From: Dehalococcoidia bacterium
GTDB lineage: Bacteria; Chloroflexota; Dehalococcoidia; Lucifugimonadales; UBA1123
NCBI GenBank assembly: GCA_034420555.1
Contig: DAOULF010000259.1
Location: 13,444 to 77,443, forward strand
DNA length: 64,000 bases
Reading direction: 5' to 3'
Part shown: piece after piece, positions 5,445 to 24,383 of the stretch
Position numbering within the stretch: the first letter of the stretch is position 1
How the letters are laid out: each line of letters starts with the position of its first letter
The notes under the pieces: model-generated
The model's input: the letters and a program-made list of their open reading frames with translations, nothing else
Told to the model about the DNA's origin: nothing
Databases searched by the model: none
Translations under genes and position numbers: made by a program

Positions 5445-7919
5445 ATGAAGCGCGTTACTTCACCGCAGGAGTTTCTCGGCTTCAGGGTGGGAGACGACAG
5501 GAAACTGGCCGGTTGGGCTGACATGGTCGGCTATTTCGAACGCCTTGAGACGGAGAGCGACAGGCTCGTCGTAACTGAGATAGGTAGATCAACAGAGGAT
5601 CACCCCTTCAACCTATGCGTCATCAGTTCGGCGGATAACATCGAGCGGCTGGATGAGTATAAGGCGATTCAGCAGTCCTTATCCGACCCTGAGCCGCTCG
5701 GTTCACGAGAGGCCGAAGACTCTATTCGCCGCGCCCGGGCCGTTGTCGCCGTAACTTGCAGCATCCACGCGACCGAAGTGGGCGGCAGCCAGATGTCGCT
5801 CGAACTGGCTCACCTGCTTGCCTCCTCTGACGAGGAAAGAGTCCGCTCCATTCTGGAGAACGTGATTCTTCTCCTTGTCCCCACCATGAACCCCGATGGA
5901 CTGATTCGCGTCAAGGACTGGTATGACGCTTCGCTCGGAACTCACTTCGAGGGATCTATTCCGCCCTACTTGTATCACAAGTACACCGGGCACGATAACA
6001 ACCGCGACTGGTTCATGTTCACCCAGAAGGAGACCAGGCTGGTCGTGGAGCACATCCACAACGCCTGGCATCCGCACATTACCTACGACATCCATCAGAC
6101 TCGCGCCGACGGAATGAGGATGATTCTCCCTCCCCTGCTCGATCCCATCGGACCGAACGTGGATCCGGTCATACAGAGCGAGATGGCGGCGCTCGGAGCA
6201 CATATGGCAGCCCAACTAGTCTCCGAGGGCAAGGCCGGAGTCGCCATGAACATGGTCTATGACTCATACAGCCCCAGCCGCTCGTATCCTCACTACCACG
6301 GGGGCCTGAGAATACTTTCAGAGGCGGCCAGCGCAAAGATAGCCACCCCCATTGACATTCCCGCATCCGCCCTGCGCGAGGACAGAGGCGAAACGCCGAA
6401 AACCAAGTCCTGGAAGCACCCCCTTCCATGGAAAGGCGGCGTCTGGAAACTCCGCGACATCGTTGATTACAACCTCTCCGCTGCCATGGCCTGCCTCGAT
6501 CATGCCGCTCACAACCGGGGCTGGTGGGTCGGAAACAGCTATGATGTCCTCAAGAGAGCGTCAGCCAGCCAGTCCAATCCATACGCATACGTGATACCGA
6601 AGGCCCAGCACGACCCCAGCGCCGCCGACGAACTTCTGGAACTCATGGAGTTTGCCGAAGTCCGCATCCACCGCGCAGAGGAGTCTTTCAACCATGAAGG
6701 CTTCGAAGTCGAGGCGGGAGATAACCTGATCTTTACCCAACAGCCCTTCGGGTCTTTCGCGCAGACAATGCTTGAAACCCAATCGTACCCGGACATCCGC
6801 GAATATCCGGCCGGTCCGCCCAAGCAGCCTTATGATGCGACATCCCACAGCCTGCCGCTTTCGATGGGCGTGGAATGTTACGAGTTGAAGACACCCATAA
6901 GTGCCCGAACGAGTCCGCTAGGAAAGCCTGCTTCTGTAAACAGGCGTCAAGCGCGGCCCGTGATTGCCGAAGCGCCCGCCTACGCGCTGGAGGCGACATC
7001 CAACGCCTCGGTGTCAATAGTCAACCGGCTCTTGTTCAGTGGGCATCCCGTGCTGCGGGCATACTCCCCTACGCACTCTGGAAGTGAAGAGCTGGCCTCC
7101 GGAACCTGGTTGCTGCCCGCTTCCGACGCCTCTCGCGAAGTCCTCTCTTCGACGAACTTGAGGGTCGGCGTTCGACCGGTCGAGACCCGACCGGAAACAG
7201 GGATCAGACTACTGCGACCGCCAAGAATCGGCGTGTATGCGAGCTATGTTCCGAGTATTGAGGAAGGATGGACCCGGTATGTGTTCGACAGCTACGGCTT
7301 CGAGTACACGTCGCTCGTGGATAGCGACATAAAAGAACTCGCTCTGGAAAGCCGTTTCGACTGCATAATCATTCCACACCAGAGGGTCAGACAGCTGCGC
7401 CGCGGATTCAGCAGCGCCCACTACGCGCCACGCTTTTCCGGCGGGTTGGGAGACAGGGGCATCGCGGCGCTGCGAAGGTTCGCCGAGCGTGGGGGAACGA
7501 TCATCGGCTGGGACGATTCAAGCCGGCTGCTCTCTCATCATCTGAAACTGCCCGTCAGCAACCCGCTCGCCAGACTGCAAAGTTCGGACTTCTTCGCTCC
7601 CGGCAGCCTGCTGAGGATAGACGTTGATAACACTCATCCCATCGGGTTCGGAATGCCGGCTAACGCCGCAGCGCTGTACATGAACGGCCCGGCCTACCGG
7701 GTGGAAAAGGGCGATACGATAGCGCGCTTCTCGGAAGAGGAGACGTTGCTGAGCGGACTGCTCATCGGCCAGGAACATATAGCGGGCCTCTCAGCGCTGG
7801 TGTCGGTGCCGGTTGGACTCGGTAAGGTTATCCTGTTCGGGTTCAGACCCCACTTCAGAGCGCAGGCGAGAGGCGCTTATAAGCTCCTGTTCAACTCGGT
7901 GTACGATTCGGTCAAGTAA
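5445..7919 (+). CDS. M14 family zinc carboxypeptidase-like protein with large C-terminal extension
   Basis: HATEVGGSQMSLELAHLL (HxxE zinc site), NPDG and HDNNRDW are typical of peptidase M14. The C-terminal part resembles a GATase1-like domain. Confidence 0.75.
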   Translation: MKRVTSPQEFLGFRVGDDRKLAGWADMVGYFERLETESDRLVVTEIGRSTEDHPFNLCVISSADNIERLDEYKAIQQSLSDPEPLGSREAEDSIRRARAVVAVTCSIHATEVGGSQMSLELAHLLASSDEERVRSILENVILLLVPTMNPDGLIRVKDWYDASLGTHFEGSIPPYLYHKYTGHDNNRDWFMFTQKETRLVVEHIHNAWHPHITYDIHQTRADGMRMILPPLLDPIGPNVDPVIQSEMAALGAHMAAQLVSEGKAGVAMNMVYDSYSPSRSYPHYHGGLRILSEAASAKIATPIDIPASALREDRGETPKTKSWKHPLPWKGGVWKLRDIVDYNLSAAMACLDHAAHNRGWWVGNSYDVLKRASASQSNPYAYVIPKAQHDPSAADELLELMEFAEVRIHRAEESFNHEGFEVEAGDNLIFTQQPFGSFAQTMLETQSYPDIREYPAGPPKQPYDATSHSLPLSMGVECYELKTPISARTSPLGKPASVNRRQARPVIAEAPAYALEATSNASVSIVNRLLFSGHPVLRAYSPTHSGSEELASGTWLLPASDASREVLSSTNLRVGVRPVETRPETGIRLLRPPRIGVYASYVPSIEEGWTRYVFDSYGFEYTSLVDSDIKELALESRFDCIIIPHQRVRQLRRGFSSAHYAPRFSGGLGDRGIAALRRFAERGGTIIGWDDSSRLLSHHLKLPVSNPLARLQSSDFFAPGSLLRIDVDNTHPIGFGMPANAAALYMNGPAYRVEKGDTIARFSEEETLLSGLLIGQEHIAGLSALVSVPVGLGKVILFGFRPHFRAQARGAYKLLFNSVYDSVK

Positions 7920-13525: not shown

Positions 13526-14170
13526 TCAGGTCCTGCTCGCGGCCTGTGGCAAGAGAGCTTCCGAAACACCGATCATGCTGTCCCGCGTGACCAGCGTGGC
13601 CAGTTCCTCTTCCAACATCCCGTCCGTTCCCGCCGGTCTGCGAGGCAGGACGAGGTAACGCAGGTCCGCCGTGCTGTCCACGACCCTCACCTGCGTATCC
13701 TCATCGAGTTCCAGGCCGAATTCGCGCATGACCGAGCGAGGTCCAACAACCGCTCTCTGCCGGTAAGCGAAGCTCTTGTACCAGTCCGGCGGCGGCCCCA
13801 GGAGCGACGTCGGATAGCAGGAGCAGAGGGTACACACCACCAGGTGATGCAGGTCGTCGGTGTTCTCCACGACCGCAAGTTCCGCGTCGTGCGTGAGCGT
13901 GTAGCCGAGTTCGTAAACCGCCGCGCGAGCGTCGTCGAGCAGGCGCTGCTTGAACGCCGGGTCTCTCCACGCCTTCGCGACGACTCTTGCGCCGTCCGAG
14001 GGACTACGCGACCGGAACAATTCGGCACGCTCCCGGACCTCATCCTGCTCGATTATGCCCTTTTCGATGAGCAGTTCGTGAATTGCAAGCGCGCGCCTCG
14101 CAGGCAGGCTAAGCTTAGTATCGGGCTGCATTCCTTCGTGCTCGGACTCGTCGTGATGATTGTCGCTCAT
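13526..14170 (-). CDS. nthA: nitrile hydratase alpha subunit, Co-type metal site
   Basis: The metal-binding motif VVCTLCSCYP (C-T-L-C-S-C, with Thr/Tyr typical of Co-type) is followed by LLGPPPDWYKSFAYRQR. Confidence 0.88.
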   Translation of the reverse strand: MSDNHHDESEHEGMQPDTKLSLPARRALAIHELLIEKGIIEQDEVRERAELFRSRSPSDGARVVAKAWRDPAFKQRLLDDARAAVYELGYTLTHDAELAVVENTDDLHHLVVCTLCSCYPTSLLGPPPDWYKSFAYRQRAVVGPRSVMREFGLELDEDTQVRVVDSTADLRYLVLPRRPAGTDGMLEEELATLVTRDSMIGVSEALLPQAASRT

Positions 14171-14235
14171 TTTGAACTCTCAGTGCTTCAAGCCATCTCT
14201 TAAATGCCGGCTCCATACTTGGGAGCGCCTCTGTA

Positions 14236-14270
14236 ATTCCCTCTCCCTTGATGGGAGAGGGTTAGGGTGA
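14236..14270 (+). repeat. family A hairpin repeat (CCCTCTCCC-TTGAT-GGGAGAGGG + TTAGGGTG)
   Basis: It forms a perfect 9-bp stem. It lies in the 151-nt spacer between the nitrile hydratase beta-C and alpha genes. Confidence 0.7.
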
Positions 14271-14321
14271 AACACGCGATTCCTCCCAAGGTTCGATATC
14301 TATGACATAGCTTCTAAACTA

Positions 14322-14639
14322 TCAGCCCTCAGTTACGGGGCGCAACCACTGCTCGTACACGTCCACGATGAGCAGGTCGTTTTCGTCCTCAGCGTAAGAG
14401 TCGCCCCAAACGTGAGACTGCTCGAACTCGACCTGGTAGAGGAGGCGCTTGGGAACTCCCGTTCCTCCGTGCGCCCTGGTCTCCGGGTCGAAGAAGGGTC
14501 CGCTCACCGCGAGCACCCTGCCCTTCTTTCCTTTGATGAACCAGGGAGTGCGATGGTGGTGATCCACGATGTCGGACTTCACCAGTACATCGTCGCCTGG
14601 CCGGAATTCACCGGGCTCTGCCGAGAAGACTATCCCCAT
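14322..14639 (-). CDS. nitrile hydratase beta subunit, C-terminal-half protein
   Basis: FRPGDDVLVKSD..HHRTPWFIKGKKGRVLAV..LYQVEFEQSHVWG..VDVYEQWL matches the SH3-like C-terminal domain of NHase beta. Confidence 0.8.
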   Translation of the reverse strand: MGIVFSAEPGEFRPGDDVLVKSDIVDHHHRTPWFIKGKKGRVLAVSGPFFDPETRAHGGTGVPKRLLYQVEFEQSHVWGDSYAEDENDLLIVDVYEQWLRPVTEG

Positions 14640-14932
14640 CGGTCGTCCAACTCTTTCACTTTGGCGTCTATCTCTTCCGTAGTAAGGACTCCCTTCTCTA
14701 CGATCAGCGTCTCCAGCGATGCGGACCAGCGTTCATAGTAGCTGTACGACTCATACAACTCGCGCGGTATGGCCTCTATGCCACGCCTGAGTTCGTCAAC
14801 CGTCACCAGGTCGCGCGTCCTGAGCGCGCCGACCAGCGCGTTGGTCAGGTGCTCCCAGTCCGCCCATTCGTGTTCCGACCTGTCTATCGGTTCGTCCGAG
14901 GGGAGTCCTCCCCTGTCGTGTACTTCGGGCAT
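14630..14932 (-). CDS. nitrile hydratase beta subunit, N-terminal-half protein
   Basis: MPEVHDRGGLP..EHEWADWEHL..YYERWSASLETLIVEKG matches the N-terminal domain of NHase beta. Its stop overlaps the next ATG by 10 nt (ATGGGGATAG). Confidence 0.8.
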   Translation of the reverse strand: MPEVHDRGGLPSDEPIDRSEHEWADWEHLTNALVGALRTRDLVTVDELRRGIEAIPRELYESYSYYERWSASLETLIVEKGVLTTEEIDAKVKELDDRWG

Positions 14933-14936
14933 AGTC

Positions 14937-15254
14937 CTACTCGTGCCCGACCGAACTCAGAGGATTCACCGTAACGCGGCTCAGAGTAACCTCTCCCGTA
15001 TTGCGGAACTGGTGCTCCACGTCGGGCGGCACTAGAACGGCGTCCCCGGCCTTTATGGGATACTCCGTCCCTTCCACCCACAGGACACCCTCGCCCTCCA
15101 CGATGTAAGCCTGATGCTCCCAGGGGTGAACGTGCTGCGCGCTCGTTCCTCCCGGCGGATGCTGCACCCACAGCATCACATAATTCGGTACGCCGTCATC
15201 CGGACCGAGAACAGGGTTGCCCCTGCCTTCCACATTCTTTATCACTGGTTCCAT
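14937..15254 (-). CDS. cupin domain protein
   Basis: It has the cupin motifs HVHPWEHQAYIVEGEG and GDAVLVPPDVEHQFRN. The ATG at 15254 has an upstream GAGG. It ends 4 nt before the NHase beta-N start. Confidence 0.8.
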   Translation of the reverse strand: MEPVIKNVEGRGNPVLGPDDGVPNYVMLWVQHPPGGTSAQHVHPWEHQAYIVEGEGVLWVEGTEYPIKAGDAVLVPPDVEHQFRNTGEVTLSRVTVNPLSSVGHE

Positions 15255-15321
15255 GTTTACCTCATTTAGTTGTTTAAGTTTAGCAGTGATATTTCCTATA
15301 TTTCGCAACCGTAGGGGATAG

Positions 15322-15678
15322 TCACAACAGCCTGTACGGGACTCGAATCAGACGCTGCCTCGCAGGGTCAACGCCAAGTCCTAGAATCTCAAGTGTAACC
15401 GCTCCAAGTATGGGGTGCATTTCCGCATCCCCGAAAACCACAACCGAGCGCACTTCCTCACCCTCCACGCGAAGAACAGTCTCCCCTATTCGGTAGTCTC
15501 GAAAACTTCCGTCTGCAAGTTCGAAAGAGCCACTCCTCTGGGCTTCGACCCCAAGGCTGTCCAGAATGGGCGCCGGAACGATTGAGAAGGTCGCGCCCGT
15601 GTCCACCAGCGCTTCCGCCATCTGGAAGCGTTCGCCCTGCGGGTCGCCCACCCCTATCGGAACATTGAATAGTCCCAT
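15322..15678 (-). CDS. retropepsin-like (clan AA) aspartyl protease
   Basis: It has the ALVDTGATFSIVP catalytic D-T-G-A motif, the 118 aa single-domain size, and ILGAVTLE near the C-terminus. Confidence 0.7.
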   Translation of the reverse strand: MGLFNVPIGVGDPQGERFQMAEALVDTGATFSIVPAPILDSLGVEAQRSGSFELADGSFRDYRIGETVLRVEGEEVRSVVVFGDAEMHPILGAVTLEILGLGVDPARQRLIRVPYRLL

Positions 15679-16897: not shown

Positions 16898-17218
16898 TCA
16901 CTCGGGCATTCCTGCGTCTATCCACCTGGAAATCTCATCAATCTCGTCCGGCTTGAGGAACGGACCGCCCATAGGCATCCGCGGTATGGATCCGAATCCT
17001 TTTCTGAGGGATATGATCAGCGCGGTCTCCTCTGCGGGCACTCCCGACTCGATGAACTTGCTCCCCATGGATTCGTCGTTCGCCAGTTCCTGCGGCGTAG
17101 CCCATGAGTAGGAATGGATTCCGGGAAGACCCTTGCGGCCTTCCTTGCGCTCCCATCTTGCCATGATGCCGTCCAGGAGTTCTTGGACTCTCGGCCAGGT
17201 CGCGATTTCTGTACTCAT
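16898..17218 (-). CDS. hypothetical protein (106 aa)
   Basis: The ORF is coding-like and its stop lies 1 nt before the OsmC start. The C-terminus LKPDEIDEISRWIDAGMPE resembles the tail of planctomycete-type cytochrome c domains, but there is no CxxCH. Confidence 0.45.
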   Translation of the reverse strand: MSTEIATWPRVQELLDGIMARWERKEGRKGLPGIHSYSWATPQELANDESMGSKFIESGVPAEETALIISLRKGFGSIPRMPMGGPFLKPDEIDEISRWIDAGMPE

Positions 17219-17274
17219 GAGCCATTCCTGCGCAAACTGCTGAATATAGAACCAAAGGCATAGGCATATTATCC

Positions 17275-17295
17275 ATTGCAATACACTTTTGCAAT
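17275..17295. promoter_or_regulatory. perfect palindrome ATTGCAA-N7-TTGCAAT in divergent intergenic region
   Basis: The inverted repeat is read directly from the sequence. It lies between the minus-strand operon (start 17218) and the plus-strand reductase gene (start 17477). Confidence 0.3.
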
Positions 17296-18373: not shown

Positions 18374-18483
18374 TAGTGCGACAACTTAGTTGTGATGGAT
18401 ATTCAAGTTCCTATTTATTCCCTCTCCCCTTGGGAGAGGGTTAGGGTAGATAAACCATCATTTCAATAATGTTGAACTACTAG
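18370..18483. repeat. CTAG-bounded miniature repeat, family A-long, copy 2
   Basis: It aligns with 4515..4622: GCGACA(G/A)CTTAGTTGTGATGGATAT ... hairpin ... GTAGATAA.CC..CATTTCAA..ATGTTGAAC.ACTAG. It starts at the stop codon of the reductase gene. Confidence 0.75.
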
Positions 18484-24345: not shown

Positions 24346-24383
24346 TTCCCTCTCCCTTGAGGGAGAGGGCTAGGGTGAGGGTG
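24346..24383 (+). repeat. family A hairpin repeat
   Basis: The sequence is TTCCCTCTCCC-TTGA-GGGAGAGGG-CTAGGGTGAGGGTG. It overlaps the probable GTG start of the DUF3179 gene. Confidence 0.7.

Follow-up and report, generated by a model that had tools for sequence, protein, structure and literature searches.

A Predicted Three-Polypeptide Cobalt Nitrile Hydratase with a Split β Subunit in a Dehalococcoidia Bacterium

Introduction

The split-β, activator-free architecture of nitrile hydratase (NHase; RCN + H2O → RCONH2), in which two small polypeptides take the place of the single β subunit, is already known from ToyJKL, from AnhD-AnhE-AnhA and from routine RefSeq annotation. To date, split-β NHases without an activator have been studied in two Streptomyces enzymes, and no high-resolution structure of them is available (PMC8574189). 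Here we describe a locus of this architecture in a 64,000-nt stretch of DNA (the window, within which all coordinates count) on contig DAOULF010000259.1 of a Dehalococcoidia bacterium.

The NHase of Streptomyces canus CGMCC 13662 (ScNHase; Guo et al., 2019, 2020) is encoded in the order anhD-anhE-anhA, and its subunits have masses of 10.4, 11.4, and 21.3 kDa (PMC7329996). It is cobalt-dependent, and in the genome its authors detected no gene for an activator; AnhD was proposed to be a chaperone, all three subunits were required for activity, and the complex was AnhD2E2A2 (PMC7329996). ToyJKL of Streptomyces rimosus consists of α (21.2 kDa), β (10 kDa) and γ (11.4 kDa) subunits that form an (αβγ)2 complex (PMC8574189), and it is encoded within the 13-gene deazapurine cluster toyA-M (PMC12648386). 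According to Nelp et al. (2014), whose work is cited in PMC7329996, ToyJ can bind cobalt and be modified on its own.

The window locus comprises three genes on the minus strand, here called βN, βC, and α after the parts of NHase to which their products correspond (Table 1). We conclude, with a probability of roughly 0.85, that its products form a functional NHase of three polypeptides with non-corrin cobalt, of the split-β type known from Streptomyces. As judged from sequence alignments, the catalytic and second-shell residue set of a Co-type NHase is complete over the three polypeptides, and it is under purifying selection.

Layout of the Locus

A preliminary description of the window had placed three open reading frames (ORFs) here, and all three were recovered in the ORF listing, which together with the sequence gives the transcription order βN, βC, α. 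The 10-nt overlap of βN with βC (ATGGGGATAG) is likewise as described. On the minus strand the context of the overlap reads cgATGGGGATAGtc, with the start codon of βC lying 10 nt inside the end of βN, and the reverse complement across the junction is gacgaccgATGGGGATAGtcttc. At the C-terminus of βN, D-R-W-G-stop, the Arg-Trp codons (cgATGg) furnish the ATG of βC, and the stop codon of βN is TAG. The offset from βN to βC is 293 nt; because 293 mod 3 is 2, the two genes are in different frames.

For comparison, 80 related genome loci (L001-L080) were used, which come from independent assemblies, complete chromosomes included. Their hosts are Dehalococcoidia/Chloroflexota metagenome-assembled genomes (MAGs), Pseudomonadales/Gammaproteobacteria, Latescibacterota, Gemmatimonadaceae, and Planctomycetota.

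The α Subunit

The α protein matches the Pfam family NHase_alpha (PF02979) with an E-value of 9.8e-80. It passes the NHase α equivalog TIGR01323 (253.4 bits, cutoff 249.85) yet fails the γ equivalog of thiocyanate hydrolase (SCNase), TIGR03887 (184.9 bits, cutoff 291.45). Among sequences in the PDB, Co-type NHases are its best matches (3e-66 to 3e-55), followed by Fe-type NHases (about 1e-47) and the SCNase γ chain (4.7e-44).

The sequence VVCTLCSCYP, which had been described as a Co-type claw-setting motif, occupies residues 111–120 and supplies C113, C116, S117, and C118. Within it, a Thr and a Tyr (T114 and Y119 here) are the Co-type signature. That Co-type chains head the PDB matches of α agrees with this and bears out the description. 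The stretch CTLCSCYP is invariant in all 62 α sequences of the family, 59 of which have T121. Here P120-T121-(S/A)122 stands in place of the P-W-P of canonical Co-type enzymes, which read YPWP in the PDB alignments.

At its N-terminus, α begins with a tail rich in His and acidic residues that reads MSDNHHDESEHEG. Such a His/Asp/Glu-rich tail is family-wide: in the α N-termini of the 80 loci it has 2–11 His residues and always closes with (D/E)H(P/E)G; in L067, for example, it is HEHGHDHHHGDRDGHEHDHDGHEHEG. In opisthokont fused NHases, a His-rich stretch lies between the β and α domains (PMC3323583), and the tail of the window α occupies the same position as that stretch.

The Two β-Half Proteins

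The products of βN and βC are, as the preliminary description had it, the N- and C-terminal domains of the NHase β subunit: βN matches Pfam NHase_beta_N (PF21006) at 2.4e-20, over model positions 1–98 of 115, and βC matches NHase_beta_C (PF02211) at 2.7e-19. On the NCBIfam full-length β model TIGR03888 (226 positions), βN spans positions 1–98 and βC positions 135–226. Missing between them are therefore about 36 linker residues of canonical β (model positions 99–134). In PDB profile searches, every solved NHase β was matched by βN (1.9e-16 to 1.7e-8) and by βC (1.3e-13 to 1.6e-6), and the last match was in each case an SCNase chain (SCNase β at 3.7e-7 for βN, SCNase α at 2.1e-5 for βC).

Structure prediction gives the same assignment. 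The AlphaFold (AF2) model of βN has five helices (predicted local distance difference test, pLDDT, 79.5), and that of βC is SH3-like (pLDDT 74.5), with a template modeling (TM) score of 0.73 to the C-terminal halves of NHase β. The significant structural neighbors of both models are solely NHase β and SCNase β/α chains (TM 0.63–0.73).

In the family alignment, the invariant residues of βN are R49, R50, Y60, Y65, E67, R68, and W69, and βC has the invariant motif H28-H29-R30-T31-P32. R49, Y65, and W69 of βN, R30 of βC, and CTLCSCYP of α are all invariant over 59–81 family sequences. When βN is aligned to 4FM4_B and 3QXE_B, R49 falls on the Arg of the F/Y-R-H-x-I-E motif, with Y65 16 residues further on; in the corresponding alignments of βC, R30 falls on the Arg of H-x-R-x-P.

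We also noticed that the last helix-turn-helix of βN (residues ~61–96, …LETLIVEKGVLTTEEIDAKV) weakly and recurrently resembles the N-terminal helices of NHase α (residues ~20–55, …AIHELLIEKGIIEQDEVRE). The resemblance surfaces in profile searches as sub-threshold α matches.

Origin of the Split

The split of β is ancient and selected, rather than an assembly error, according to the lengths of the homologues, synteny, the diversity of the junctions, and the ratios of nonsynonymous to synonymous substitution rates (dN/dS). A homologue search with βN against 5.8 billion proteins yielded 505 homologues, many of them on megabase contigs, and among the matches listed nearly all were 100–105 aa long. 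An exact-sequence lookup of βN in a contig index had no match. For βC, 61 homologues of about 103 aa were found, nearly all of them within 100–119 aa, one of which is named by NCBI "nitrile hydratase subunit beta [Dehalococcoidia bacterium]." A HMMER scan without a word index of 1.84 billion cluster representatives (50% identity clusters) gave 1,202 relatives. Of the best 150 of these, 90 match the βN profile alone, and most of the others are also βN proteins of about 100 aa with a spurious short α-like match in the last helix; within this best 150, the nearest relatives of βN are overwhelmingly stand-alone βN proteins.

None of the 80 loci has a βN that reads through into βC. A separate βC ORF adjoins βN in 73 of them, and the remaining loci are cut short or have no clear βC match. 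The 10-nt overlap of the form ATGGGnnTAG occurs in 40 loci from four phyla; other βN/βC junctions are −13, −17, −19, −4 (ATGA/GTGA), +1, +3 (TGA-nnn-GTG), +5, +16, +69, and +101 nt. In pairwise comparisons with six relatives, dN/dS was 0.05–0.17 for each of the three genes, which indicates purifying selection.

These observations bear directly on whether an indel from sequencing or assembly, or a frameshift of recent date, could have turned a normal β into a pseudogene or a mis-assembled gene. The two halves adjoin, lie in different frames and overlap by 10 nt, and a single indel could give such an arrangement. We nevertheless consider this explanation practically negligible. The same split is found in 80 independent assemblies, the junctions of the relatives are of many kinds and in several frames, and both β halves have dN/dS values of 0.06–0.17. 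Moreover, the missing residues of canonical β are too many for a 1-nt indel to account for the split. The preliminary description had held that the overlap was not what a random frameshift would leave, and the evidence is on its side: neither a 1-nt error fusing the halves nor, in the fetched set, an unsplit β at this locus in close relatives was found, and the split recurs in Dehalococcoidia, Gammaproteobacteria, Latescibacterota, Gemmatimonadaceae, and Planctomycetota.

A programmed frameshift yielding a fused β was considered separately and rejected, as no slippery heptamer is present in the overlap and the junctions of the relatives vary in frame and spacing.

Enzyme Class and Substrate

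The preliminary description had left three substrates open for a Co-type enzyme. The assignment to Co-type NHase is supported by the equivalog and PDB matches of α. Among the substrates, an ordinary nitrile is the most likely. Thiocyanate and a nucleoside nitrile are unlikely, the former as α fails the SCNase γ cutoff and the latter as the locus has no deazapurine context.

An SCNase (SCN- + 2H2O → COS + NH3 + OH-) would have the same architecture, with a split β and the same βN–βC–α order; its genes are arranged scnB-scnA-scnC according to the 1998 work of Katayama et al. Its chains also correspond one to one with those of the window, SCNase β (157 aa) aligning with βN, SCNase α (126 aa) with βC and SCNase γ with α. 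Against so close a correspondence stands the comparison of the three proteins with NHase and SCNase by sequence, in which SCNase ranked below every NHase chain for all three proteins and was the weakest solved relative (α, 4.7e-44 vs. 3e-66; βN, 3.7e-7 vs. 1.9e-16; βC, 2.1e-5 vs. 1.3e-13). The N-terminal extension of about 45 residues in SCNase β is missing in βN, the match starting at chain residue 48, and no genes related to sulfur oxidation or to carbonyl sulfide (COS) were found among the neighbors, which were scanned to about 10 kb. Thiocyanate hydrolysis is, in our judgment, very improbable here. The same is to be said of a ToyJKL-type tailoring enzyme acting in secondary metabolism on a nucleoside nitrile (toyocamycin or a preQ0-like 7-cyano-7-deazapurine). 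ToyJKL is likewise built of three subunits, of similar sizes (PMC8574189; PMC12648386), yet it belongs to a deazapurine cluster, whereas the neighbors scanned here within that distance include no genes resembling those for GTP cyclohydrolase I, QueC, QueD, or QueE, and conservation across phyla is limited to the three NHase genes.

A third alternative is that the enzyme has the NHase fold but a non-classical reaction or role, for example in the turnover of a cyanohydrin or a different C≡N compound jointly with the product of a neighboring cupin gene, rather than being a general hydratase of aliphatic or aromatic nitriles. The stop codon of this cupin gene lies 4 nt before the start of βN, and among the 22 Dehalococcoidia loci with this cupin, 20 show the same spacing, at βN identities of 96–69%. 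The top NCBIfam match of the cupin is (R)-mandelonitrile lyase, a cupin-type hydroxynitrile lyase. In addition, the motif adjacent to the α pocket is YPT(S/A), not YPWP, and no amidase partner was seen among the scanned neighbors. The lyase match, however, reaches only 27 bits against a cutoff of 140, and the cupin matches unrelated cupins at comparable levels, so weak a match being a lead rather than an assignment. The cupin is also not present in the loci of Gammaproteobacteria, Latescibacterota and other phyla, which retain the NHase genes, and all catalytic NHase residues are intact. We therefore rate this alternative as quite improbable, if somewhat less so than the two preceding ones.

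Several points weigh against a functional split-β Co-type NHase and should be set beside the evidence for it. Cobalt binding, oxidation of the cysteines and the conversion of nitrile to amide are predictions from sequence. Each β half scores under the cutoff of the full-length β equivalog, as is expected at half length. The translational coupling of βN and βC that we infer is drawn from the geometry of the genes, and inspection of the junction sequence revealed no clear Shine-Dalgarno sequence before the start codon of βC. The structured spacer of 151 nt between βC and α could lower the expression of α. R49, Y65, and R30 are taken to correspond to βArg52, βTyr68, and βArg157 of Pseudonocardia thermophila NHase on the strength of the alignments and of residue numbering from the literature; these three residues are presumably the second-shell partners of the oxidized cysteines and the active-site serine. 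The PDB contains βR52 and βR157 mutants of that enzyme. The kinship to ToyJKL and AnhDEA, in turn, is drawn from architecture and from a Streptomyces homologue used as a proxy. Finally, in nine Dehalococcoidia loci a conserved βN and βC pair stands without an α gene up to 6 kb away on both strands, and the β halves may therefore at times act without an α encoded in cis.

The nine loci in question (L023, L030, L041, L048, L049, L050, L051, L053, and L054, at positions ~6001–6600 of each) all have the βN/βC junction TGA-nnn-GTG. Either their α is elsewhere in the genome or the βN/βC pair has another partner. In L050, whose neighbors were assigned by eye from translations, ORFs resembling an antitoxin and a PduO-type corrinoid adenosyltransferase precede the pair, and a GAPDH gene follows it.

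Proposed Assembly and Maturation

If the locus encodes a split-β Co-type NHase, α would hold cobalt(III) in the C113-T-L-C116-S-C118 claw, with two of the three Cys residues oxidized to Cys-SO2H and Cys-SOH, while R49 and Y65 of βN and R30 of βC would act as second-shell residues that hydrogen-bond the oxidized cysteines and Ser117, as in solved NHases. Canonical enzymes have a loop that joins the two β domains; it has been lost here, and each domain is its own gene. Because the start codon of βC lies inside the last codons of βN, ribosomes that end βN could re-initiate on βC (termination-reinitiation), which would give an output of about 1:1. The α gene was likely coupled in this way ancestrally, as it lies at −4 to +3 nt in many relatives, with an inserted palindromic repeat now separating it; an effect of this repeat on transcript stability or on the α:β ratio is possible. 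For the complex, (α·βN·βC)2 is probable, as in toyocamycin NHase and ScNHase.

The proposed maturation involves no separate activator. By analogy with the S. canus enzyme, cobalt would enter α directly and βN would serve as a swapping chaperone, a role consistent with a partial, sub-threshold match of βN residues 58–88 to the accessory-protein model TIGR03889 (24.9 bits, cutoff 46). The His-rich tail of α probably helps to capture cobalt.

In keeping with such a scheme, and as had been described for the immediate surroundings, no activator or metallochaperone gene is adjacent. The NCBIfam scan of the three NHase proteins and five neighbor products gave no full-length match to an NHase accessory protein (TIGR03889, NhlE-type, CobW), and the Pfam scan of the neighbors out to about 10 kb revealed neither an amidase nor a cobalt-transporter domain. 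Genes for an activator, a transporter or an amidase were likewise sought and not found among the neighbors conserved across phyla, where only the three NHase genes are conserved.

The βC–α Spacer and Neighboring Genes

The spacer between βC and α contains no ORF of at least 40 aa on the coding strand and no consensus promoter-like or terminator-like site. Its RNA is predicted to fold with −51.2 kcal/mol (z −3.1), and the hairpin, lacking a T-tract, does not qualify on that count as an intrinsic terminator. In relatives, the βC–α distance ranges from a 4-nt overlap to 276 nt, with many loci at −4 nt or 1–3 nt apart. This tight spacing suggests that the coupling of all three genes is likely the ancestral state and that the spacer of the window is an insertion.

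The palindrome in the spacer, which resembles a repetitive extragenic palindromic (REP) element or a miniature inverted-repeat transposable element (MITE), has the form TTCCCTCTCCC-N-GGGAGAGGGTTAGGGTGA, or more loosely TTCCCTCTCCC-N3-5-GGGAGAGGGTTAGGGTGAGGG. Three copies are present in the window (14240–14260, 18421–18439, and 24349–24368), against 0.01 expected by chance. Copies also occur in NHase spacers of relatives, namely twice in L004 (6674–6692 and 6790–6808, in a 276-nt gap), and once each in L062 (6338–6356) and L070 (6341–6359). The repeat lies in the βC–α spacer in the window and in L004, and in the βN–βC spacer in L062 and L070. It was further observed to be scattered in intergenic regions of these Dehalococcoidia genomes, with independent insertions in different spacers of the NHase operon.

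Table 1. Coordinates of the features described in the window.
Feature	Position	Strand	Size	Description and basis
βN gene	14630..14932	minus	100 aa, 11.6 kDa	Stand-alone N-terminal helical domain of NHase β
βC gene	14322..14639	minus	105 aa, 11.9 kDa	Stand-alone SH3-like C-terminal domain of NHase β
α gene	13526..14170	minus	214 aa, 24.0 kDa	Predicted catalytic metal-binding subunit, Co-type NHase
βN/βC overlap	14630..14639	minus	10 nt	Sequence
Claw-setting metal site codons	13817..13834	minus		C113-T-L-C116-S-C118; sequence
His/acid-rich α N-terminal tail	14138..14158	minus		H5-H6-D-E-S-E-H11, then E-G; sequence
βC–α spacer	14171..14321	minus	151 nt	Holds inserted palindromic repeat; fold, ORF listing
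Repeat core hairpin, REP/MITE-like	14240..14260	not assigned		CCTCTCC-N-GGAGAGG, then GTTAGGGTGA; repeat search
Cupin_2 gene	14937..15308	minus	123 aa	PF07883, 2.7e-19
Clan-AA (retropepsin-like) aspartic protease homologue	15322..15678	minus	118 aa	PF13975, 2.6e-7; TIGR03698, 3.7e-11, below cutoff
Small conserved protein	16898..17281	minus	~111–127 aa	Syntenic in 23 related loci

In the Dehalococcoidia lineage the operon probably begins with the cupin gene, whose product may be a partner of the NHase in function. The solved structure closest to the cupin is that of the Mn cupin TM1459. The homologue of clan-AA proteases sits between an RraA-like gene and the cupin gene, and the small conserved protein has no Pfam or NCBIfam match. 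Other neighbors encode an RraA-like aldolase, OsmC, NhaA, ValRS, a major facilitator superfamily (MFS) transporter, a protein resembling 3-hydroxyisobutyrate dehydrogenase, two GMC oxidoreductases, and others. The synteny of the cupin, OsmC, RraA-like, and NhaA genes is confined to close Dehalococcoidia.

Wider Family and Implications

Split-β NHases form a large, diverse family under strong selection that includes members in uncultivated marine Dehalococcoidia, Gammaproteobacteria, Latescibacterota, Gemmatimonadota, and Planctomycetota. Gene fission and fusion in this family range over βN|βC|α, βN|βC-α, βN-α, βN-βC-α, and the order βC-α-βN. Such variants are candidates for structures and for use as biocatalysts whose maturation in E. 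coli requires no activator, and they allow one to ask whether βN and the His-rich tail of α replace the activator.

Several individual arrangements were observed. Plasmids of Rhizobium, Burkholderia, Microvirga, Agrobacterium, and Planktothrix carry stand-alone βN-like genes, the gene order in Microvirga (L082) being βC–α–βN. In a Latescibacterota MAG (L024:6294–7268), βC and α are one ORF of 324 aa, a natural fusion. Fusions of βN with α (P0189 and P0182), fusions of βN, βC, and α with short linkers (P0147, P0168, P0177, and P0193), and tandem βN–βN proteins (P0122, P0124, and P0164), which could be activator-like, were also seen. In a Pseudomonadales MAG (L014:6613–7259), α is broken by a frameshift and is a pseudogene or the product of an assembly error.

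For the biology of the host, the locus points to a predicted capacity to use nitriles. No amidase that would show the fate of the resulting amide is linked to it. The association of related MAGs with sponges is only partly supported: bins named SB06xx are listed among sponge-associated Poribacteria (PMC7883664), the bin names COS, IRC, and RHO had no literature matches, and a host origin of the OZ, OY, and CBD MAGs is presumed. The nitrile hydratase of aeroplysinin-1 from Aplysina sponges was considered as a match and rejected, as it is Mn-dependent, has bands of 26 and 72 kDa, and yielded peptides without NHase homology (PMC3766881).

A more far-reaching picture can be drawn, which we regard as unlikely in its entirety. 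The clade would be a self-sufficient, horizontally mobile, activator-free NHase cassette with a cobalt-capturing α tail, spread over at least five phyla of uncultivated marine bacteria, some of them sponge-associated, and acting on a natural marine nitrile. In Dehalococcoidia it would have become a four-gene operon whose metal cupin supplies or processes the nitrile, for example by cleaving or forming a cyanohydrin, or aids metallation.

Comparison with Known Systems

The canonical Co-type NHases of P. thermophila (1IRE), Bacillus RAPc8 (2DPP), and Pseudomonas putida (3QXE) share with the window proteins the α fold, CTLCSCY, the N- and C-terminal β domains, and the second-shell Arg and Tyr residues. 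They differ in having a single β chain of 219–233 aa that retains the linker of about 36 residues, a dedicated activator gene (P14K or NhlE), the sequence YPWP, and an α without a His-rich N-terminal tail.

SCNase and ToyJKL, named as split-β precedents in the preliminary description, are apt ones. In SCNase of Thiobacillus thioparus (ScnB/ScnA/ScnC, PDB 2DD4), the split β and the same domain-to-gene mapping are accompanied by a cobalt claw site in the α-like γ subunit; it is, however, the solved relative most distant by sequence, and the N-terminal extension of its β is not shared by βN. ToyJKL likewise has three subunits, of which the two small ones are β halves and whose masses are close to those of the window proteins, but differs in its nucleoside nitrile substrate and deazapurine cluster. 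In the fused β–α NHases of eukaryote type, one polypeptide of about 450–600 aa contrasts with the three genes of the window; these enzymes reportedly need no activator, according to the work of Martinez and colleagues. The likeness to them consists in a short βN–βC linker (representatives P0168, P0177, P0193, and others) and, in Monosiga brevicollis and others, in the His-rich stretch just N-terminal to the α domain (PMC3323583).

ScNHase has the βN–βC–α order, the Co-type site and the lack of an activator in common with the window enzyme, and the subunit sizes are similar (10.4/11.4/21.3 kDa vs. 11.6/11.9/24.0 kDa here). It belongs to another phylum, the host here being an uncultivated marine Dehalococcoidia lineage, and its sequences are distantly related, as judged through a Streptomyces homologue that serves as proxy. 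That homologue, on a Streptomyces plasmid in RefSeq, comprises a "nitrile hydratase" (111 aa), an "SH3-like domain-containing protein" (102 aa) and nthA in the same order, which are 39, 40, and 55% identical to βN, βC, and α of the window, respectively. Its genes are joined by 4-nt overlaps, whereas βN and βC of the window overlap by 10 nt, and they are followed by genes for an aquaporin and a HoxN/NixA Ni/Co transporter, neither of which is present at the window locus. The Streptomyces split enzyme further has YPRP where the window α has YPTS, and the His-rich α tail sets the window clade apart from the split enzymes of Streptomyces.

The features specific to the clade described here are its uncultivated marine hosts, the 10-nt RWG-stop/MG overlap, the YPT(S/A) motif and His-rich tail of α, and, in Dehalococcoidia, the coupled cupin. 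To what was known of split-β NHases, this study adds that the His-rich α tail is family-wide, that a cupin gene lies 4 nt upstream in Dehalococcoidia, and that a repeat has been inserted in the βC–α spacer.

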